A stretch of DNA of 64,000 nucleotides from Candidatus Saccharimonadales bacterium (GTDB lineage Bacteria > Patescibacteriota > Saccharimonadia > Saccharimonadales > Saccharimonadaceae). The notes under the pieces were generated by a model. The model had not been told where the DNA came from, did not search any database, and saw nothing but the letters and a program-made list of their open reading frames with translations. Of this stretch, positions 12,949 to 22,800 are shown in pieces; positions within the stretch are counted from its first letter, which is position 1; each line of letters begins with the position of its first letter. A program made the translations under genes and the position numbers. Where the stretch lies: positions 285-64,284 of the forward strand of contig JBAQEV010000017.1 of NCBI GenBank assembly GCA_049286925.1, read 5' to 3'.

Positions 12949-13389
12949 ATGATCGAACAAATACAAAAAGTACTAGAAAGCTATGGTGGAACCTGGAAAA
13001 ACAAAAAAGGAATATTTGAGTTTTCAGCGACTATCGCTGAGAGAAAAGCTTTTTTATCGACAAAAAAACTTACTTATCAAGCTAGATTAAATATCGATGA
13101 CCAAGCAAAACAAATTAAATTCTCGGAGATGCTAATCGAAGCCGGATCCGGCTTATCTTCAGGTGGCGGATTCGATGGCGACATGGGAATGAGTCCAGGT
13201 TTTGGATTCAAAACCGAAACATACAACACAATGGGCGGCGACCGCAAAGGCAACATCGAAGAACAATCGAATTTATTTGGTAAAAAGTTTGAATATAAGT
13301 TTAACTATCACGAAATCCGATCCAAAACAGAACAGACGGCAAAAGATGACGGTTATACATTTGAGTACAAGATACTACCTGTAAAATAA
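12949..13389 (+). CDS. Hypothetical protein
   Basis: RBS AAGGAG. Gly-rich central segment. No family recognised. Confidence 0.55.
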   Translation: MIEQIQKVLESYGGTWKNKKGIFEFSATIAERKAFLSTKKLTYQARLNIDDQAKQIKFSEMLIEAGSGLSSGGGFDGDMGMSPGFGFKTETYNTMGGDRKGNIEEQSNLFGKKFEYKFNYHEIRSKTEQTAKDDGYTFEYKILPVK

Positions 13390-13400
13390 AACTCAACAGC

Positions 13401-14969
13401 TTAATCGGCGATTTTATATTCGATGGCTTTGTATTCTGGACCGCCATTTATTGGGTCGTCGAGCGTGATTTCTTGAATAACTTGCCAATTATCATAAGGC
13501 TTCGTAACGTTGCCCGACTTTGAAAAAGCAATATACCAAAAAGTCGGATGCTCTGCTGTAAACGCTGTAATTTCCTTAATTTTGCCATGATCATTATTTT
13601 TCAACATCTCAAGTGACCCGAAATTATATTCAATCGGGTCAATATAATAGACTGGGTGGTCGTTAGTTGAATAAAAAACTGCTTCATAAAACAGCCATGG
13701 CGATTCAGCAATAATTGGCTGTCCGACTGAACTATTGGCCGAAGCTTCTTCGACAATCTGCCTTGTTTGTTTTGAGCTTTGCTCGTTCTTGTTATAATTG
13801 CCCAATTGCCATACATTCGATACACCAACTGTCATCATGATAACCAATATCGACGGTATAATAACCCGCCATCTTGAACCCAAATACTTAGACCCAAGCG
13901 CAAAAGTAACGCCAATAAATAAAGCGACTCCGACAACTGATGTCATCAAATATCTATCGATAAACGACGACCTAAGCGGCGGCATAGATAATGCGATAAG
14001 TAATATCATGGGCACAAAAGCGACCGCCATAATCAAACAATAAGACTGTTTTCTTAAATCATCTAGCGATTTATATATCTTATAGGCCAAAATACCCAGT
14101 ATCACAGCCATAACGACAAAAGCCGCCGCCATCCAACCCGTTACCTGACCGACATCTTGATAATAAATTAAGTTTGTCAAAAAATTAATCGGCGTATTTG
14201 GCGTTACTGGTGGTATCCAAAAGCCAAAAGCCTGAACTATAGTCAGCTGAGTAAGCATATATGGCAACCACGGCAAAAATAGACCAATAGCCAACAGATG
14301 AGATAGTATCCAATTCTTTGAAAAGAAAGATTTAATAAACTTGCCCTTTTTAGCAGTTCGCCTGATGACATCAGCTCGCCAAATCCAATGCGCCAGCCAA
14401 ACAATCGCCACAAAATAATGCGTCCACATACCTAAAGAAACCAGTATTCCATAAATAACCCATGGCAGACGTCTCTTTGAATTCATTGCAAAAATTAAAG
14501 CATAAGTTGCCGCGAGGGCAATCGTCGCAACTAGTGTGTACATGCGGGCCTCTTGACCATAACGCACCAACATTGGCGATAAGGCCATAAATATCAAACT
14601 CATTGCTGCGGCTTTTTGTCCGAACAAACGCTTGACCAGCAGATAACCTAGAATAATGGCGGTTATACCGAAAAATACACTCATCGAGCGCAATGCCAAC
14701 TCGCCAGTGCCAAACATCATGCTCCACAGTTTAAGCAACCAATACGACATTGGCGGATGAACATCGGCAGCAGTATATTTGGCAATATCAAAAAAATCAA
14801 AACGGATGAGATAGGCTCCAAACGCCTCATCGAACCAAATTGAAGATTTGGTGATTGTCCATAGCGTAACTGCCAAATAGACAGCCAGGCCTGGCGCCAA
14901 AAATAGGTAGTCAAACTTATCTAACAGCGCAAGCTTTTTACGACCGAATAATCGATTAAATAGTTTCAT
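13401..14969 (-). CDS. Glycosyltransferase family 39 (ArnT/PMT-like) membrane protein
   Basis: About 12 TM helices, an early DEA motif (IWFDEAFGAY) and a C-terminal soluble domain. Confidence 0.75.
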   Translation of the reverse strand: MKLFNRLFGRKKLALLDKFDYLFLAPGLAVYLAVTLWTITKSSIWFDEAFGAYLIRFDFFDIAKYTAADVHPPMSYWLLKLWSMMFGTGELALRSMSVFFGITAIILGYLLVKRLFGQKAAAMSLIFMALSPMLVRYGQEARMYTLVATIALAATYALIFAMNSKRRLPWVIYGILVSLGMWTHYFVAIVWLAHWIWRADVIRRTAKKGKFIKSFFSKNWILSHLLAIGLFLPWLPYMLTQLTIVQAFGFWIPPVTPNTPINFLTNLIYYQDVGQVTGWMAAAFVVMAVILGILAYKIYKSLDDLRKQSYCLIMAVAFVPMILLIALSMPPLRSSFIDRYLMTSVVGVALFIGVTFALGSKYLGSRWRVIIPSILVIMMTVGVSNVWQLGNYNKNEQSSKQTRQIVEEASANSSVGQPIIAESPWLFYEAVFYSTNDHPVYYIDPIEYNFGSLEMLKNNDHGKIKEITAFTAEHPTFWYIAFSKSGNVTKPYDNWQVIQEITLDDPINGGPEYKAIEYKIAD

Positions 14970-15156: not shown

Positions 15157-15178
15157 GTTATCGAACTTGTTCGATAAC
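15157..15178. promoter_or_regulatory. Perfect 10-bp inverted repeat GTTATCGAAC-TT-GTTCGATAAC, 25 nt upstream of tRNA-Pro
   Basis: Read directly from the sequence. It coincides with the stop codon of the recombinase ORF on the other strand. Confidence 0.35.
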
Positions 15179-17086
15179 GAACAAAAAGGCGAGTTCCGAC
15201 GACGGGGTGTGGCGCAGTTGATCGCGCGCGCGGTTTGGGACCGTGAGGTCGAAGGTTTGAGTCCTTTCACCCCGACCAGTAGATATTTCGTCTAAATCCG
15301 TCATCAAATTGTATGGCGGATTTAGCTTTATAACAGAGGTAGAATCATTTCCAACACGTAGGTTCGCAATAAACTCATTGCATATAGTATCCAGAACCAT
15401 GATGTCAGTCGTTTTTAGCATAGTTAACACCTTAGAACGTGTGAGTTCGTAGAATTGTTTCTCAGTAGGTAGTGCTATATCAAGTTTAGCTAGTTCAGCC
15501 TTATTGCTAACCATAGCTTCTTCATCAAGGCGTATCAGTTGTTGGTACTCTTCTAACTTGCCCTCATGGTACTTCTTGTAATCATCAGGACTGTTTACTT
15601 GGAACTCTTGATAACGTGCATACTGCTGTTCGTTATTCTTTTGTGACTGCTTAGCCTCAGCAAGCTTACGTTGTAGTATAGCCCTATCGGAAGCAATGTG
15701 TTGCTCAAGGCTGTTGATGTATATGCGGTATGCTTGCTCACTCTTTTTAGTTAAGTGACGTAGTTGCCATTCAATACCTGCTAGTACGAACTTACCACGA
15801 ATACTCTTAGAGAGTTTGATGTTGAGATTTTTCTGCTCTGTCTCATTGTGTCGTAAACAAGCCTTATTACGACAGTAGAAACTAATAACCCATTTGCCAG
15901 CATTTTTACCACGCTTAAGTGGTGTGTGTTGAAACCTCATAGTGTTATCACAGTAATCACAGATAACTTTATTATGTAGTAACCCATAGTCTAATCTTTG
16001 TGAACGGTTAGTTTTTACGCTTGTCGTTCTACCAAAATCTTTAGCAATATCGGCGTTTAGCTGTATGTACTCATCTGCTGTTATTAAAGGCTTAAAGTTA
16101 TACAAGTCTACGAGGTTTGCGAGGTTATCTCCGTAGCTGTATAAACCAGAGTAAAACGAATCTGCAAAGATGTTGCCAACCATTTGCTTAGTAACCTTTA
16201 TTAGCTTTGGCTTGTCGTCTTGGTCTTTACGTTCAGTGAGTTTTACGCTATTCAAAAACTCTGCAATATCTGTGTTATTCATGTCCCCATACAACCTCAT
16301 ATCTACTGCCTGACGTAGAACATTCCAGTTATATTCATCAGGGGTAAAGTATCCAGTAGTAGAGTCCACATAGTAGCCTTTCTTCACTACACCGTTATAC
16401 TTACCCTCTACGATATTACCGACAGTACCACGCTTCACATCAACCGCTAGTTTATCCGAGTATTGCTTAGAAGTAGCAAACAATATACCGAGCATCATCT
16501 TCCCATTTGGCGAATTGTCGAACTGATACGTAACAAATGCAAGGTCTTGAATCTCTTCATCGTCAATCATTTCTATGACTTCACCAGCTTCTTTCATGTT
16601 GCGAGATAGACGGTCAGGAGACCACGATATAAGCCCATGATATTTACCAGTCTTAAAACCAAGTAGCATTGTGTCAAAGATTGGACGATTACCAGAGGTT
16701 TTAGCAGAGGCACTTTCAACAAATATGTCTTCATCACGGATAAAAACCTCTAGGTGTTTTGCTTTTCTCAGACACTCAGTACGTTGGTCATCTAGTGAGC
16801 GTACTTGCTTAGCCTCATCATCAGTAGACTTACGTAGATATATAGCGTAACGGCGTTTTTCTTTTGGTAGTATTTTTTTAGCACCCTCTGTTGTAGCAGA
16901 GAAGTAATTTAGCAGGTCATTGACACTACGTTCACTGCTCCCGAAGGCTTTATTACGGTACTCAGATGTATATAGGTGCTGTTCTTGTACACTTGCAAGC
17001 TCAGCCTCATCTGCGAGAACTTTAGTGCGTTTTTTGCGATTAGTTGTACCTTTTGGCATATAGTTATTCCTACTAATATTGTACAA
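15158..17086 (-). CDS. Large serine recombinase (resolvase domain, recombinase domain, zinc ribbon)
   Basis: YAIYLRKSTDDE...SLDDQ catalytic Ser region, SWSPDRLSRN, and the Cys pairs CDYCDN...FYCRNKAC. The last ~40 codons are antisense to tRNA-Pro. Confidence 0.9.
   Translation of the reverse strand: MYNISRNNYMPKGTTNRKKRTKVLADEAELASVQEQHLYTSEYRNKAFGSSERSVNDLLNYFSATTEGAKKILPKEKRRYAIYLRKSTDDEAKQVRSLDDQRTECLRKAKHLEVFIRDEDIFVESASAKTSGNRPIFDTMLLGFKTGKYHGLISWSPDRLSRNMKEAGEVIEMIDDEEIQDLAFVTYQFDNSPNGKMMLGILFATSKQYSDKLAVDVKRGTVGNIVEGKYNGVVKKGYYVDSTTGYFTPDEYNWNVLRQAVDMRLYGDMNNTDIAEFLNSVKLTERKDQDDKPKLIKVTKQMVGNIFADSFYSGLYSYGDNLANLVDLYNFKPLITADEYIQLNADIAKDFGRTTSVKTNRSQRLDYGLLHNKVICDYCDNTMRFQHTPLKRGKNAGKWVISFYCRNKACLRHNETEQKNLNIKLSKSIRGKFVLAGIEWQLRHLTKKSEQAYRIYINSLEQHIASDRAILQRKLAEAKQSQKNNEQQYARYQEFQVNSPDDYKKYHEGKLEEYQQLIRLDEEAMVSNKAELAKLDIALPTEKQFYELTRSKVLTMLKTTDIMVLDTICNEFIANLRVGNDSTSVIKLNPPYNLMTDLDEISTGRGERTQTFDLTVPNRARDQLRHTPSSELAFLFVIEQVR
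15203..15278 (+). tRNA. tRNA-Pro (TGG)
   Basis: Acceptor CGGGGTG/CACCCCG, anticodon stem CGCGG/CCGTG with loop TTTGGGA, T-arm GAAGG-TTTGAGT-CCTTT and CCA. Length 76 nt. Confidence 0.9.
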
Positions 17087-17301: not shown

Positions 17302-17859
17302 ATGACAAAAAAGAAAGATGACTACATGGCGACCAACTCACAAGTCATGCTTGCCACTACCAAGCCGTATATCGCTGGTGCAAAAATCCAATTAGAGCGT
17401 TATCTAGAAGCACAAAGAATAATGAAAACTCACAAGATGGTTTTGGGCGGTGGAATAGATAAATGTACATATGAACTATCTGCACTGCTAGAACATTTAG
17501 ACAGCATAGAGGTGCAGCTAAGAAACAGAGGCATAACGTTGCCGACAGGTGAAATAATTCGACAATTCCGTAATCATTTACGACATGATGGTAGAGGCGA
17601 AAAAGACCGTAGCAATGGCAAACGAGGTCAGGCAATAGGCTTGAATGATAAACTACTGGTACATATAGGTTTTACTGATAGTGGTGTAAAGATGGGTTCA
17701 GTTGTACTAACTGCCCAACAGATAGATACATACATTACGACCGCCGAAACAATAATGTGGGCACTAGTGTTGGGTGGCAAGCTAGAGATTAACGGTGAAA
17801 CAGTGACCGTCTATCAACAACCTACAGACATAACCACTAAAAACACCCCAGAGGCGTAA
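17302..17859 (+). CDS. Hypothetical protein with an RNxxxH (HEPN-type) motif
   Basis: RNHLRH at residues 90-95 (nt 17569..17586). The TAATG stop/start overlaps the next gene. Confidence 0.6.
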   Translation: MTKKKDDYMATNSQVMLATTKPYIAGAKIQLERYLEAQRIMKTHKMVLGGGIDKCTYELSALLEHLDSIEVQLRNRGITLPTGEIIRQFRNHLRHDGRGEKDRSNGKRGQAIGLNDKLLVHIGFTDSGVKMGSVVLTAQQIDTYITTAETIMWALVLGGKLEINGETVTVYQQPTDITTKNTPEA

Positions 17860-18734
17860 TGGACAGTCTATTTAATAGCAGAGAGATTGCTACTGGACTA
17901 TGGCTGGTAGCACTGATAATCTTTGCTTCACGCTTCAAAGTAGTGCGTTCATCAATTGTGGATGTCCTTAAAGCATTATTCACGCCAAAACTGATTATAC
18001 CGTTACTTATATCATTTATTCCGACTACTGTGGTTGTCCTTGTGCTAGCTTATTTTGATTTGTGGGACATGTCTGTATTAAAAGAAACGATTTATTGGGT
18101 CATCGGTACTGGACTCGTAATGTTCGGTAGTTTCACTGACGTTAAAAGTGTTAAGGCACTGTACAAAAAGACAGCAAAAGACACGCTAGCATTGATTGTT
18201 GTGCTTGAGTTCCTGATTTGGTTTTATGTATTTCCACTGTGGGCTGAACTATTGTTCGTGCCGTTCGTGACCCTGCTTGTCTTATTAACGACAATGGCAC
18301 AATACATGAAGACAGAAGGCATCGACCTAACACGCAAGGTCTTAAACGGGGTTCAGGTATTTGTGGGATTGGTGATATTAATGTTTGTGATGGTAGCACT
18401 TATAAAAGACCCGAGACCGCTATTCACGTATCAGAACCTAGAGTTGTTCTTGTTGCCTCTAGTTTTGTCGTTCACATATGCACCCTCTGTGTACCTACTA
18501 GCCCTGTACAGCAAGTATGAGCTAGCTTTTAACCGTATAAACCACTTTACGACTCTAAGCAAAAAAGATAAAAATGCTATCAAATGGGCTACCATCAAAC
18601 GCTGTGGTTTAAGTGTGTCTGTAACGGGTGAGATAATACGACACTTAGCAATAAACCTAAGCAACGACACTACAAAGGCTCAAGCCCTGAAGCTTGTAAG
18701 AAACTTTGACCCGAAACAACCGTCGTTCCTATAG
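17859..18734 (+). CDS. Polytopic membrane protein (about 7-8 TM)
   Basis: Hydrophobic throughout. Translationally coupled to 17302..17859. Confidence 0.65.
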   Translation: MDSLFNSREIATGLWLVALIIFASRFKVVRSSIVDVLKALFTPKLIIPLLISFIPTTVVVLVLAYFDLWDMSVLKETIYWVIGTGLVMFGSFTDVKSVKALYKKTAKDTLALIVVLEFLIWFYVFPLWAELLFVPFVTLLVLLTTMAQYMKTEGIDLTRKVLNGVQVFVGLVILMFVMVALIKDPRPLFTYQNLELFLLPLVLSFTYAPSVYLLALYSKYELAFNRINHFTTLSKKDKNAIKWATIKRCGLSVSVTGEIIRHLAINLSNDTTKAQALKLVRNFDPKQPSFL

Positions 18735-19181
18735 CCTAGAAAATACCTAACTTTGTTAGAAACGCCCCTAGACTTGATTCATTTTTTACGTTTTTATTTG
18801 CAAAACGTACTAATACTCAACTTTCAATTTTAGACGCAAAATAATTGACGAACATACTATAAAAAACGGCAAAAAACACGCTTTTATATGCGAGATGGGT
18901 ATAACATCAACTTTTGACTTAGGACGAGAGTTTTGCGTTTTGGCTCAGGGGTGAGAAATTGCAAAACGGCATGTTTTCGAGGCTACTTGTTGTATAATAA
19001 TGCCATAGACCTAAACCAGACATATGTTTGGCATGGTCTCAAATCATCAAGAAGAAACAGCTCGTCGTGAGTACTTCTTCTTGATGTTACTACTGGAAAC
19101 GGTGGTAGGTAGCTTCGGCTATCGCTCATGGCGGGCTTTTTAGTTTGCCTGAGATACTACTAACCCGTGGAGAATCTACCA

Positions 19182-19951: not shown

Positions 19952-20728
19952 ATGAAAATCACACACCACCTAGGACGATTCACTACATTCTTCAAGGAGA
20001 GCAGTCTTGTTATACAGCTAGTAATTGTAACTTCTGCTATTGGCATTATTGCAGGAACTGCGACAGTTGCAGCGATGGTAGTAACACCAAACAATAACGA
20101 AGGCTCAACCAATAGCACGACTAGCGAAAGTAGTGATGTTGCAAGCGATACCGTTAGTCAACAATCTACAAGTAATGAAGATGAACAGACAACAGATACT
20201 GACTCTGCTACAGCTACACCACAGGCAAACGAGACTACACCACAGAACAACGCACAGCAGAATACGCCCCAAGACTCTAGCAACAATAGCAAGCCAGAGA
20301 CACAGCCTCAGACACCCGCACAGCCTACTTACACAGACTCTTATTCGTTTAAGGCAAACTGCTCAAGTAGCCCACAGCAAACAAGCACACAAATGGACTC
20401 ATGGGGCTATAACAAATGCTATAGCTCAAGCTATACAGCATGGAAGGTTCAAGAGAAGTTTGGCACAGCACCTCTCAACTGGGGAGACCCTAAGAACTGG
20501 TTACAAGCAGCTGACAATGCGAATATCTCAAGAGGTACTACTGCTAAGCTGCATTCAGTAGGTATACAGACAACTGGCGGTGCTGGTTGGTCTGTATGGA
20601 TTGAAGCAGTTAATAACGATGGAACAGTAGATATAAGCTACTACAACTTCAACAATAATCTAGCTTACGGTAAACAATATAGTGTTAGTCCATCTGTATT
20701 TAATAGCTACATCTACTTTGGTGAATAG
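19952..20728 (+). CDS. Membrane-anchored protein with a T/S/Q/P-rich linker and a CHAP-like C-terminal domain
   Basis: The C-terminus resembles the CHAP layout (NKCYSSSYTAWKV ... WGDPKNWLQAA ... GGAGWSVWIEAVNNDGTVDISYYN). The expected GHVA His position reads GWSV. Confidence 0.55.
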   Translation: MKITHHLGRFTTFFKESSLVIQLVIVTSAIGIIAGTATVAAMVVTPNNNEGSTNSTTSESSDVASDTVSQQSTSNEDEQTTDTDSATATPQANETTPQNNAQQNTPQDSSNNSKPETQPQTPAQPTYTDSYSFKANCSSSPQQTSTQMDSWGYNKCYSSSYTAWKVQEKFGTAPLNWGDPKNWLQAADNANISRGTTAKLHSVGIQTTGGAGWSVWIEAVNNDGTVDISYYNFNNNLAYGKQYSVSPSVFNSYIYFGE

Positions 20729-20959
20729 TCGTATACAGGTATAAATAGACATAGCCAAAAGCTGCTAGGAATCGGGCGATTTACAGGGGTAGAAGTATGG
20801 ATTTTTCGTTTTTTACTTATGTCATGCTTATGGTATAAAGTAGTACTCCTATAAACAGGACTTACACTGCTATGCTTGTACACCCCTACCGCACCCCAGT
20901 ACTACAGCTATAACAAATCCAAGATATATAATTTTGAAATATAAATTCAGTAGATTGTT

Positions 20960-21592
20960 TTACGATACTTTTTTAGGCGGTGTTAAATCCCAGTATTCAC
21001 ACATGTGCTCAAACAGGTATTTTGCAAAGAAGCTGTCACGTTGTTCGGTAGCTATAAGCAAGACCTCGAGTCGAATTAGTTCTTCTGCGATTGTTTGGGT
21101 TTTCTCCTTCGTTTCCAAGTTCTGCGTAAAGAGATTGTGGATGATTTGATTTCTATTCTTTATAAAATTGCTTAACTGTTGTAGGTAGTCTTGGTACTTC
21201 TGCTCACTAGCATCGTCAGTGTAACGGAAAAGCTTGAGGGCTATTAGTTTAGTACCAAGCGTTAAGTCTGCAAAACCAATAGTCTTACCGTTCCGCTTAA
21301 AATTATTTGCGATTTTACCTGAAGCCTTCTCGCCGACTACATGTGGGTTAGGCTGACCACTTGTAACTGCAACCCTGTCGTAGAAGTCGTTAAGTGCACG
21401 TTCAAGCCATTGAGTTTTTATATTGAATAGACAGATAAGTTTAGTTAGCCCATCCATATTTGAGTCATTAATGTCCTTAGTGAATTTCTTATATAGTTCG
21501 TCTGCTTCTGCATATAAACGGTATTTCTTATCCATTGCCGTTTCTGGGTGAGATGACACGTAAGGAATGTCTAGTCTGTTTTCATCAATCAT
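20960..21592 (-). CDS. Hypothetical protein with an RNxxxH (HEPN-type) motif
   Basis: RNQIIH at residues 147-152 (nt 21137..21154). I chose the ATG at 21592 because it forms an ATGA overlap with the upstream gene. Confidence 0.6.
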   Translation of the reverse strand: MIDENRLDIPYVSSHPETAMDKKYRLYAEADELYKKFTKDINDSNMDGLTKLICLFNIKTQWLERALNDFYDRVAVTSGQPNPHVVGEKASGKIANNFKRNGKTIGFADLTLGTKLIALKLFRYTDDASEQKYQDYLQQLSNFIKNRNQIIHNLFTQNLETKEKTQTIAEELIRLEVLLIATEQRDSFFAKYLFEHMCEYWDLTPPKKVS

Positions 21593-22152
21593 TGTTTTAA
21601 GCCAAGTTTGAGTGCAATAAATAGGACTAGTAAAGATGACGCAACACCAAGCACGAATCCTACCAAGACCTGCACCCACTTAAAGCTCCTGTCTGAAATT
21701 AAGTGTTTATGTGTTCCGTAGCGACTCTTATACTCCTGAGAAATTCCACGCATCTCCATGAGCGTATATAGGTTATCTCTAATTCCACCCTCTATAATCT
21801 CTCGCTTTCTGAAAAGGTCAGGGTTTACTTCACGGATATGATTGCTATCGGGGAATTTCCAAGCTTGACCACACTCAAGTACATGACCAGACATTTCGCT
21901 ACCAATCGTCTGCATGTTTTTAATCATGAGGGGGTGTGCACGCCTTCGCTTAAAACGCCACATCTTCCAAGTACTAAATACGTCCTCCTTAGCTCTTTTT
22001 GCGAGACCTTCAGTTCTCCGCATACGCATATCTACATCAACTGTATGCTCCCCAAGTTTACGAAAATCTTGGATTTGGCGAAGCATTTGTTTGTTCCACT
22101 TTTTGAGTGAATCTAGTTCTTCAAATAGTTCTTTTTTGGTATAGTCTTTCAT
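21589..22152 (-). CDS. Hypothetical protein with a C-terminal TM anchor
   Basis: Charged helical N-terminal part and a C-terminal helix WVQVLVGFVLGVASSLLVLFIALKL. Coupled to 20960..21592. Confidence 0.55.
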   Translation of the reverse strand: MKDYTKKELFEELDSLKKWNKQMLRQIQDFRKLGEHTVDVDMRMRRTEGLAKRAKEDVFSTWKMWRFKRRRAHPLMIKNMQTIGSEMSGHVLECGQAWKFPDSNHIREVNPDLFRKREIIEGGIRDNLYTLMEMRGISQEYKSRYGTHKHLISDRSFKWVQVLVGFVLGVASSLLVLFIALKLGLKQ

Positions 22153-22243
22153 CTACTTACATCTTATCAGTTATTAGGAAGAGATTGGCAAACTAGAAAT
22201 GACACGAATATACGTAGGTTCAACATAATTCTCGTTAATCAAC

Positions 22244-22447
22244 TTACGACTTCTTTTTATGTGCAATATCTGGGTTTTTAGAGGTTCTTTGCTTTTTACG
22301 TTCAGGGGCATTTAGTATCATAGTGCGTCTCTCAATACTCTTTTTGACTTTATCAACACTAGTAATTTTAGGTGCACTAAAAGCCCTGTTATCCCAATTA
22401 GATGTGTCAGCAGGTGATTCTTGAGGTGGTAACTTTATCTCACTCAT
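22244..22447 (-). CDS. Hypothetical small basic protein (67 aa)
   Basis: ORF only. It lies 8 nt downstream of the stop of the open frame 22459..22615. Confidence 0.35.
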   Translation of the reverse strand: MSEIKLPPQESPADTSNWDNRAFSAPKITSVDKVKKSIERRTMILNAPERKKQRTSKNPDIAHKKKS

Positions 22448-22614
22448 TAACTTTATTATAACAAGAAGTCCATACTAGAAGCACGTTCAGACCGTACAAG
22501 GCTATCAAGTCGTGAATCTAATGAATCAAGGCTAGTTTTGATACTACCAAAGTTAACTAGCAGGTTATGCAGGGTTTTTAGAATAGGTTCGTTTGAGGAC
22601 GCAGTACGCCGACC

Positions 22615-22654
22615 AAATAAAAAAGACCATCCGTAAGGATAGTCTTTTTTATTT
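22615..22654. terminator. Strong bidirectional terminator (17 of 18 bp stem, GTAA loop)
   Basis: AAATAAAAAAGACCATCC-GTAA-GGATAGTCTTTTTTATTT. Confidence 0.75.
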
Positions 22655-22655
22655 G

Positions 22656-22800
22656 GACCGCCGGGTGGCAGGCCTCAAACCTTCGACTTTTTGTCAAAGA
22701 CAAAAATAGTCGGAGGTTTGGCGTAGCGCCATGCAGCAAAATTAGTTTACTCATTTTGCAAACAAGCGGAGGAGCCGCAGGCGATGTCCTTTCGCTCTCC
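22656..22800 (-). other. GC-rich structured region with a ~50-bp imperfect palindrome carrying an inverted copy of the tRNA-Pro T-arm
   Basis: 22674..22687 (CTCAAACCTTCGAC) is the exact reverse complement of tRNA-Pro 15248..15261. This 14-mer forms one arm of the long hairpin 22672..22722. The ends pair (GGAC-CGCC with GGCG-GTCC), and the region lies directly upstream (minus strand) of the 22615..22654 terminator. Confidence 0.45.

Follow-up and report, generated by a model that had tools for sequence, protein, structure and literature searches.

Do the two overlapping genes near the distal end of a small integrative island in a Saccharibacteria genome encode a ribonuclease (RNase) of the HEPN type and a membrane protein that regulates it? 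The genes were found in a stretch of 64,000 nucleotides (nt) of contig JBAQEV010000017.1 (GenBank assembly GCA_049286925.1, Candidatus Saccharimonadales bacterium), and this whole stretch is called the window here. They lie on its minus strand between positions 20,960 and 22,152. The upstream gene encodes a 187-amino-acid (aa) protein with a hydrophobic C-terminal tail (the tail protein), and the downstream gene encodes a 210-aa protein with an RNxxxH motif (the HEPN-like protein). The two protein families are recognised by no curated library, and we describe them as a HEPN-like RNase candidate and its putatively tail-anchored helical partner. Natural variants of the locus keep the downstream gene, taken as the effector, and differ in its upstream partner, with a fixed junction as the site of exchange. 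We judged it somewhat likelier than even that the locus encodes a latent HEPN RNase effector of a defence/abortive-infection or toxin-like two-gene module, carried on an integrative island and provided with a swappable upstream regulator.

A sequence-only reading of the window had described the upstream gene as encoding a 187-aa protein that ends in one transmembrane helix, and had proposed that it is coupled through an ATGA overlap to a 211-aa protein carrying RNQIIH. The open reading frames (ORFs), the overlap and the position of the motif, which corresponds to residues 147-152, were confirmed (Table 1). The length of the downstream protein had to be corrected to 210 aa, since the figure of 211 counts the stop codon.

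The 210-aa protein and its RNxxxH motif

A motif of the form Rx4-6H is not significant by itself, as it appeared in 40% of shuffled versions of the 210-aa protein and in 23 of the 57 window ORFs of at least 150 aa. RNxxxH is rarer (1.1% of the shuffles), and the only two of these 57 ORFs that contain it are the two island proteins flagged in the sequence-only reading. As an argument beyond chance, conservation of the motif is decisive and outweighs its rarity. The family of the 210-aa protein is tiny and unannotated, with 27 clusters at 90% identity among 5.8 billion proteins and 11 representatives at 50% identity in a full HMMER scan of 1.84 billion proteins, and all of its named members are Saccharibacteria. 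The family alignment, which reaches down to 27% identity, has just 16 invariant columns. R147, N148 and H152 are among them, being the same in 25 close and 11 distant members. N68, Y71 and D72, in the second helix of the model described below, are kept in at least 90% of the family, and E64, D69 and D72, all within the same helix (48-78), are invariant in the close set. Loss of the motif in homologues, which had been set down beforehand as a reason to abandon the HEPN idea, was not seen. The full HMMER scan with the family profile gave no bridge to an annotated family, and a second, word-indexed search with a wider profile (A3) gave no additional members.

Another conserved peptide of the same protein, D-I-P-Y at residues 8-11, lies in the low-confidence N-terminal tail. 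It is invariant in the close members, and D8 and Y11 are kept in at least 90% when the distant members are included. The peptide is present independently of the type of partner gene and could be a docking or regulatory motif.

By the published definition, a HEPN domain is a four-helix up-down bundle of two alpha-hairpins in which an insert separates helices 2 and 3, the motif stands at the end of helix 3, the arginine is followed by a polar residue that aids catalysis, and helix 2 can carry a conserved acidic residue (PMC3710099). The AlphaFold model of the 210-aa protein (predicted local distance difference test score, pLDDT, 84.8; predicted template-modelling score, pTM, 0.80) contains four long helices: H1 at residues 19-43, H2 at 48-78, H3 at 127-154 and H4 at 161-195. 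Between H2 and H3 there is an insert of 48 residues (79-126), made up of short strands and helices; it is the most variable stretch of the family alignment. The motif, R147-N148-x3-H152, lies at the C-terminal end of H3, just ahead of the loop to H4. D72, judged by its position in H2, takes the place of the conserved acidic residue. All HEPN features that can be checked from sequence and secondary structure were present in the protein.

Profile searches gave matches of the same kind below threshold. Nine of the 11 family members matched Pfam HEPN_RiboL-PSP weakly, the best with an E value of 1.6e-4, and the window protein scored 12 bits with this model, for which the cut-off is 28.4. In PADLOC, the window protein matched the Csx1/Csm6 (CARF+HEPN) model with an E value of 0.0015, and family members matched several Csx1, Csx1/Csm6 and CARF_HEPN models (best E 4.8e-4). 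A significant match to an established HEPN family was not obtained; the sub-threshold matches are suggestive and consistent.

Some results weigh against a HEPN assignment. No match of any member to a HEPN model of Pfam or PADLOC reached the curated threshold. A Foldseek search of PDB and BFVD with the confident model of the 210-aa protein returned nothing at E <= 0.001 and placed Csm6 (6tug) only at an E value of about 1, with a TM-score of 0.26, and sequence-profile searches of PDB (A1, A3) returned nothing relevant. The lack of a significant structural neighbour would fit a helical protein unrelated to HEPN, with an element-maintenance, RNA-binding or structural role, in which RNxxxH serves binding or structure and the likeness to HEPN is superficial. 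All profile matches are sub-threshold and centred on the motif helix, weak matches to bMERB and DUF2714, helical families unrelated to HEPN, cover the same stretch, and long-helix proteins yield many spurious matches; moreover, some bona fide HEPN domains are non-catalytic (PMC3710099). We nevertheless consider such a protein unlikely. One HEPN family was matched by nine of the 11 members, compared with one to four members for unrelated families, and an independent library pointed to the HEPN-containing Csx1/Csm6. Agreement with HEPN extends to the kind of motif (R, polar, x3, H), to where it falls at the end of helix 3, to the insert that separates helices 2 and 3 and to an acidic residue in helix 2, and neighbourhoods with restriction-modification (R-M) and nuclease genes, as described below, are typical of HEPN genes (PMC3710099).

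The motif is invariant and falls at the end of helix 3, helices 2 and 3 are separated by an insert, and weak HEPN matches recur; from these features of the sequences and the predicted model we concluded that the 210-aa protein is probably a HEPN-type domain. Its RNase activity would depend on R147, N148 and H152. The HEPN-type Rx4H signature proposed in the sequence-only reading therefore held with respect to layout, invariance and weak profile matches, and a significant Foldseek or curated match did not follow. The HEPN-like fold that it had asked for was not cleanly predicted either: the helix layout fits, and the structural search of PDB and BFVD was not significant.

The upstream partner and its exchange

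The 187-aa protein has a single hydrophobic stretch, in line with the one transmembrane helix assigned to it earlier. Its Kyte-Doolittle mean over 19 residues reaches a maximum of 2.7 at residues 162-180, and no other 19-residue mean exceeds 1.2. The AlphaFold model (pLDDT 84) consists of helices throughout; the transmembrane helix spans residues 154-182 and is followed by five residues, and residues 1-153 are helical, charged and net basic. A signal peptide was found in neither the 187-aa nor the 210-aa protein. Because of the missing signal peptide and the charged N-terminal domain of 153 residues, the 187-aa protein is presumably tail-anchored, with its N-terminal domain in the cytoplasm.

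We found 26 homologues of the 187-aa protein. The hydrophobic tail is retained in 24 of 24 aligned homologues, including a subfamily of 48% identity in which the sequence of the tail is different. Two motifs, GxHTxDVDxRM (from G34) and AWKxPDS (from A97), are invariant, and so are G165 and G169 within the transmembrane helix. The protein belonged to no Pfam, NCBIfam, PHROG or PADLOC family, the lone exception being a PADLOC match to AbiB (E 0.005) in one of 25 members. When its model was compared with PDB by Foldseek, the matches were all generic helical bundles or designed proteins. R66-x6-H73 of this protein was considered as a HEPN-like motif and set aside, with Rx4-6H occurring by chance in about 40% of proteins and the helix in which it lies being only 9 residues long.

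Eight distinct loci (the window, L001, L004, L008, L009, L016, L019 and L022) have the tail gene next to the HEPN-like gene, with an overlap of 1 or 4 nt in every case. The objection, raised in advance, that the genes might not co-occur in other genomes was thereby answered. Six further pairs were implied by cross-matching the two lists of homologues. Locus scans of genomes and metagenomes gave only five loci, two of which were already known. An apparent 169-aa truncated partner in L022 turned out to be an artefact of an N-gap in the scaffold.

Other loci carry the HEPN-like gene with a different upstream neighbour or with none. In L010, the upstream slot is occupied by a gene for a 276-aa DUF6602 nuclease-like protein, which overlaps the HEPN-like start and has the same ..AAGCAATGATTGATGA junction as the tail gene. 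The identity of the junction therefore indicates a swap within the last codons of the upstream gene. In L012, L013 and L018, the HEPN-like gene lies directly 3' of hsdR of a type I R-M system, with a gap of 17 nt in L012 and L013, and a reverse transcriptase, hsdS fragments and two resolvase genes are found near it in this group. In L017, which is located at the same tRNA-Pro site as the window island, a clean deletion has removed all of the tail ORF but the four codons at its end, and the HEPN-like gene is left intact with every invariant residue. In L024, a distant HEPN-like member stands alone between ftsK and the gene for RNase J.

Relatives of the tail gene, in turn, occur without the HEPN-like gene. 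In the loci seen, members of the 48%-identity subfamily never have a HEPN-like neighbour, and they follow an unrelated protein of 169-175 aa. On one JGI contig (that of P0047), a relative of the tail gene lies between an operon of a cyclic-oligonucleotide-based anti-phage signalling system (CBASS; SMODS, HORMA, AAA and DUF6602 genes) and a second DUF6602 gene. The DUF6602, tail and HEPN-like genes seem to be exchanged within a small network in the defence islands of Saccharibacteria.

DUF6602 nuclease-like genes were observed around both families: coupled to the HEPN-like gene in L010 (9174..10004), as the CBASS effector, and as the second copy flanking the tail relative. DUF6602 is the sole named domain of Damona, a validated anti-phage protein (bioRxiv 10.1101/2024.07.02.601686).

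The arrangement of the pair raises the question whether it is a classical toxin-antitoxin (TA) addiction module that stabilises the island, in which the HEPN protein would be a constitutively active toxin and the membrane protein its dedicated, obligatory antitoxin. Type II TA operons typically show this gene order and an ATGA overlap, the small two-gene operon with an overlap of 1 or 4 nt is kept in all eight pair loci, mostly on islands bearing a recombinase, and HEPN toxins with protein antitoxins such as RnlA/RnlB and HepT/MntA are well known. A type II toxin should, however, always be accompanied by its cognate antitoxin, and this was not the case in L010, L012/L013, L017, L018 and L024. 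The clean deletion in L017 left a HEPN-like gene with all its invariant residues, the genes in L010, L012, L018 and L024 are solo or otherwise partnered, and a whole subfamily of the tail protein has no HEPN-like neighbour. In addition, library scans detected no DNA-binding or known antitoxin domain in the partner, and 187 aa with a membrane anchor would be atypical for a labile antitoxin. An addiction module is, in our view, distinctly unlikely, and a strict antitoxin role of the membrane protein is disfavoured because of the natural deletion in L017 and the solo HEPN-like genes.

The tail family occurs independently, beside CBASS and DUF6602 genes or with a different upstream partner, which argues that it has a function of its own. 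It could then be the membrane protein that acts as the effector, as a pore former or membrane disruptor in the manner of Csx28 or many transmembrane proteins of abortive-infection (Abi) systems, with the HEPN-like protein as its sensor or activator and arrest brought about by membrane damage. The invariant GxxxG-like pair of G165 and G169 is compatible with oligomerisation, and Csx28 offers a precedent for an RNase-linked membrane pore. On the other hand, an invariant HEPN catalytic motif would be unnecessary in a mere sensor, and the HEPN-like gene persists intact in five loci from which the membrane protein is missing. A single tail-anchor helix with five residues behind it would also be a minimal pore former, and the tail protein has no fold or family match to a known pore or holin. 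We regard an effector role of the membrane protein as very improbable.

The sequence-only reading had proposed checking whether homologues sit next to known defence genes, and they do. Across the related loci we found Mrr_cat, HNH, DUF6602, type I R-M with a reverse transcriptase, and ImmA/IrrE with DUF4411, and CBASS adjoins a tail relative. Serine recombinases or tRNA genes lie within a few kb in most loci.

In L012 (300..6119), a gene for a 504-aa reverse transcriptase (RVT_1) is located immediately upstream of a split hsdS and hsdR; the HEPN-like gene comes next, and then two resolvase genes and tRNA-Glu. The locus may be a reverse transcriptase-associated type I R-M defence island. In L022 (5761..7433, -), divergent genes for ImmA/IrrE (Peptidase_M78) and DUF4411 adjoin the tail/HEPN-like pair and are a candidate toxin/defence module in the same hotspot.

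Proposed mechanism and comparison with known systems

In the mechanism that we propose, the 210-aa protein would be a minimal free-standing HEPN domain acting as a metal-independent endoribonuclease through R147, N148 and H152. It would probably be dimeric, as other HEPN RNases are, and would cut cellular or invader RNA once triggered. The 187-aa protein would be made in step with the HEPN protein through the stop/start overlap and would be held in the cytoplasmic membrane by its C-terminal helix, its basic helical domain being most likely cytoplasmic. By binding the HEPN protein it would either keep it latent at the membrane or make its activation depend on an infection signal arising near the membrane. 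The place just upstream is an exchangeable slot for a putatively tail-anchored protein, a DUF6602 nuclease or a type I R-M system, which would serve regulation or first-line defence. Since the HEPN-like gene is found with DUF6602, with a type I restriction enzyme or alone, the HEPN protein would be the constant effector and the partner would be replaceable. The sequence-only reading had also considered delivery of an RNase-like effector. This part was dropped, as neither protein has a signal peptide and no link to a secretion system is conserved across the loci.

Several observations weigh against a two-gene defence module. The HEPN-like gene was found without the tail gene in five distinct loci (L010, L012/L013, L017, L018 and L024), and neither gene requires the other. 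A direct interaction of the two proteins would be deduced from the overlap of their genes alone. L019 has no recombinase and no recognised mobile or defence gene within 8 kb. Searches of IMG/VR, of phage and plasmid collections and of PADLOC systems gave no member of the HEPN-like family, and the argument for a defence role is therefore one from gene neighbourhood only. Scans of IMG/VR with both families, tblastn of a phage collection with both proteins and tblastn of a plasmid collection with the HEPN-like protein gave no relatives, so that an origin from a phage or a plasmid is unsupported. To our knowledge, no phage-resistance phenotype is known for the HEPN-like family.

Little has been charted so far of how Saccharibacteria (TM7), ultra-small episymbionts with reduced genomes, defend themselves against phages and mobile elements. 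A latent HEPN effector with a swappable regulator would, if true, extend their repertoire by a compact immune or toxin module built on an RNase. Its variants (pair, nuclease swap, R-M-linked, solo and deletion) would be a natural experiment on how HEPN RNases stay latent. A bolder version, which we find doubtful, would make the HEPN-like gene a universal second-line RNase effector of Saccharibacteria with an upstream plug-in slot, and the tail-anchored protein, in the commonest form of the locus, a new membrane infection sensor that keeps the RNase at the membrane and releases it on phage attack. The modules would then be exchanged by recombination in the last upstream codons, which would keep the coupling (..AAGCA ATGA TTGATGA). 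If this bolder version were true, the locus would stand for a two-component abortive-infection system not described before and confined to a lineage of ultra-small episymbionts. A conceptual surprise would not be involved in any case, because HEPN domains are among the commonest effectors of conflict systems and their links to membranes and R-M were predicted in 2013 (PMC3710099).

Free-standing HEPN Abi RNases (AbiV, of about 201 aa, AbiB, AbiJ and AbiD/F) are among the closest known systems. AbiV and AbiF are restrained by upstream RNAs (type III TA), whereas the upstream element here is a gene for a putatively membrane-anchored protein or for another protein. The HEPN-like family gave no match to Pfam AbiV, Abi_2 or Abi_C.

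The locus resembles a split version of the known membrane-HEPN fusions. In the fusions, for example Salmonella gi 16762698, an all-alpha domain, a single transmembrane helix and a HEPN domain of the Abi2/SWT1 type are joined, and RNA cleavage at the inner membrane face under a membrane-linked module has been proposed (Anantharaman et al. 2013, PMC3710099). The parts have the same order in our pair (helical domain, one transmembrane helix, HEPN-like domain), and the logic proposed for it is the same. In contrast to the fusions, which have all three parts in one polypeptide and their domains on opposite sides of the membrane, the parts are split here over two genes for coupled proteins, and both soluble domains can be cytoplasmic. 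The HEPN-like domain is also not of the Abi2/SWT1 family, as it matched neither Abi_2 nor SWT1 of Pfam.

R-M-linked HEPN nucleases such as PrrC are kept inactive by the R-M complex and form a second line of defence, and at least 16 HEPN clades are linked to R-M (PMC3710099). The HEPN-like genes of L012, L013 and L018 lie directly after a type I hsdR, like prrC in the EcoprrI locus (PMC3710099). By analogy, this suggests that the hsdR-linked subclade may be a second-line RNase that is released when the first-line system is disabled. Unlike PrrC and RloC, the HEPN-like protein is a bare 210-aa protein without an ABC-ATPase domain, and the window island has no R-M gene; R-M genes are present in the subclade of L012/L013, and L018 is similar.

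HEPN RNase activity and a small membrane protein are combined in one defence module in Cas13b-Csx28, a type VI-B2 system of clustered regularly interspaced short palindromic repeats (CRISPR) (bioRxiv 10.1101/2021.11.02.466367). Our pair is alike in having a predicted HEPN RNase and a small membrane protein in one module. No cas genes were found among the Pfam-matched genes of the related loci or the window ORFs near the pair, no search specific to CRISPR arrays having been run. Csx28 itself carries a transmembrane helix and its own divergent HEPN domain, and the tail protein differs from it in matching no Csx27 or Csx28 model. HepT-MntA and RnlA-RnlB share with our pair the form of a two-gene operon in which a HEPN RNase toxin is accompanied by an upstream or adjacent protein regulator. 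The partner here differs in that it has no nucleotidyltransferase or RnlB-like domain, is predicted to be membrane-anchored and is dispensable in natural variants.

Among the components of PADLOC-DB v2, only sub-threshold matches of the Csx1/Csm6 type were obtained for the 210-aa protein, and none for the 187-aa protein except the AbiB match given above. In its proposed working the locus is like known HEPN-based Abi, TA and R-M-linked modules. It could be assigned to none of RiboL-PSP, Abi2/SWT1, PrrC/RloC, Csx28, HepT/MntA, RnlAB and the PADLOC systems. The classification that suits it best is a new HEPN-like family, restricted to this lineage, together with a new, putatively tail-anchored partner.

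The island and its other features

The sequence-only reading had regarded the pair as cargo of a mobile island, and the pair does lie near the distal end of a serine-recombinase element of ~7.4 kb at tRNA-Pro. The last ~40 codons of the recombinase run antisense through the tRNA-Pro gene and form the proximal end of the island, both in the window and in L008. The recombinase is followed by an HTH_17 excisionase-like gene, a pair of genes for proteins of 185 and 291 aa (pair 1), a LOOT RNA, a 259-aa ORF and an ORF with a CHAP domain. The HEPN-like gene, the tail gene and a 67-aa ORF are located on the minus strand. L008 has the same island at tRNA-Pro in a chromosome that is arranged differently. 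The 3' end of the recombinase gene overlaps a tRNA fragment in L004 as well.

Table 1. Positions of the gene pair and of the other island features in the window
Feature	Position	Strand	Basis or remarks
Tail-anchored partner gene (putative), 187 aa	21589..22152	-	All-helical, net-basic residues 1-153 and one C-terminal transmembrane helix
Region coding for the transmembrane helix, residues 154-182	21607..21693	-	Kyte-Doolittle, AlphaFold and conservation in homologues
ATGA, stop of the 187-aa gene and start of the 210-aa gene; translational coupling	21589..21592	-	Sequence; overlap of 1 or 4 nt in 8/8 pair loci
HEPN-like protein gene, 210 aa, probable metal-independent endoRNase	20960..21592	-	ATG at 21592; AlphaFold, family alignments and weak HEPN profile matches
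RNQIIH (R147, N148, H152), putative catalytic Rx4H at the end of helix 3	21137..21154	-	Invariant in 25 close and 11 distant members
D-I-P-Y peptide of the HEPN-like protein	21560..21571	-	
67-aa basic ORF upstream of the pair	22244..22447	-	ORF; homologues in L008 and L017 only among related islands
Start-less coding fragment with attR-like 5' end, at the distal end	22456..22616	-	Synonymous-type changes in L008 and L017
Large serine recombinase, 642 aa	15158..17086	-	Pfam Resolvase, E 1.3e-17
tRNA-Pro	15203..15278	+	
Pair 1 (185 aa and 291 aa)	17302..18734	+	
LOOT RNA, full-length	19008..19123	+	Rfam RF03000
ORF with sub-threshold CHAP domain	19952..20728	+	E 8e-4
Inverted copy of the tRNA-Pro 3' end	22663..22687		25 nt, 88% complementary
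Hairpin with T-runs	22608..22661		25-bp stem

Homology of the window, L008 and L017 ends at about 22623, and the sequence there resembles the 3' end of tRNA-Pro (GTTTGAG...CCGACCA). Because of this homology break and the tRNA-Pro-like sequence, the distal end of the island probably lies at about 22589..22616, as judged from the sequence, and the length of ~7.4 kb follows from it. The inverted copy of the tRNA-Pro 3' end was also considered as the island end and rejected. Although the direct tRNA-like copy at 22589..22616 is weaker than the inverted one, it fits better, as does the break of homology in L008. The inverted copy lies just outside the probable island end, beside the hairpin. L017 has a similar tRNA-like piece and hairpin, and L008 has neither. 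The inverted copy and the hairpin may be what is left of another integration, or may serve the flanking gene as a terminator.

At the distal end there is a strongly conserved coding fragment of 52 codons without a start codon (..FGRRTASSNEPIL...SSMDFLL*), which has counterparts in L008 (9025..9192) and L017 (5840..6006). GGTCGG (Gly-Arg) occurs in the same frame in the 5' end of this fragment and in the recombinase ORF at tRNA-Pro (15158..15280, -). From this shared sequence we infer that the recombinase would have a different tail in the excised circle, for which the fragment would be the alternative C-terminal tail, and that integration would swap the tail of the enzyme. The ~175 nt upstream of the pair (22449..22623) were considered as an RNA antitoxin or regulatory RNA comparable to those of AbiV and AbiF, and rejected: the changes in it are synonymous in kind, as in coding sequence, and the region reads as the start-less C-terminal peptide. 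An Rfam scan gave no match in 22449..22623.

Conservation of the 67-aa ORF is confined to the closest related islands (L008 and L017), and the ORF is not core to the tail/HEPN-like module. It received no assignment from family libraries including Pfam. A promoter and terminator scan of 20600..22800 gave nothing informative.

Pair 1, found on the minus strand of L008 as well (13075..14501), consists of the 185-aa protein with the motif RNHLRH, which is kept in the L008 homologue, and a 291-aa protein with multiple transmembrane helices. The proteins of pair 1 had no family match in Pfam, NCBIfam, PHROG or PADLOC. Kinship between the RNxxxH proteins of the two pairs was ruled out by hhalign (probability 0.1%), which bears out the earlier remark that the pairs are not obviously related. 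The sequence-only reading had further argued that the same architecture occurring twice in one element makes a functional theme. It is true that the only two RNxxxH proteins of the 64 kb share an island of 7.4 kb; for pair 1, however, no HEPN evidence was found beyond the motif, and the argument is suggestive and unproven. Pair 1 accompanies the recombinase and the HTH_17 excisionase-like gene in both the window and L008, and may therefore belong to the core of the element and not to its cargo.

The LOOT RNA is full-length in the window and in L004 (13124..13239, -), scoring 82 and 81 bits with a gathering score of 46. In both islands homologous ORFs of 259 and 263 aa, each with a CHAP-like ORF behind it, lie directly downstream of this RNA, which could be a 5' leader or a small RNA tied to this 259/263-aa and CHAP operon in Saccharibacteria islands. 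The product of the CHAP ORF combines a Ser/Thr/Gln-rich low-complexity linker with the sub-threshold CHAP peptidoglycan-hydrolase domain, and it is conserved in L004.

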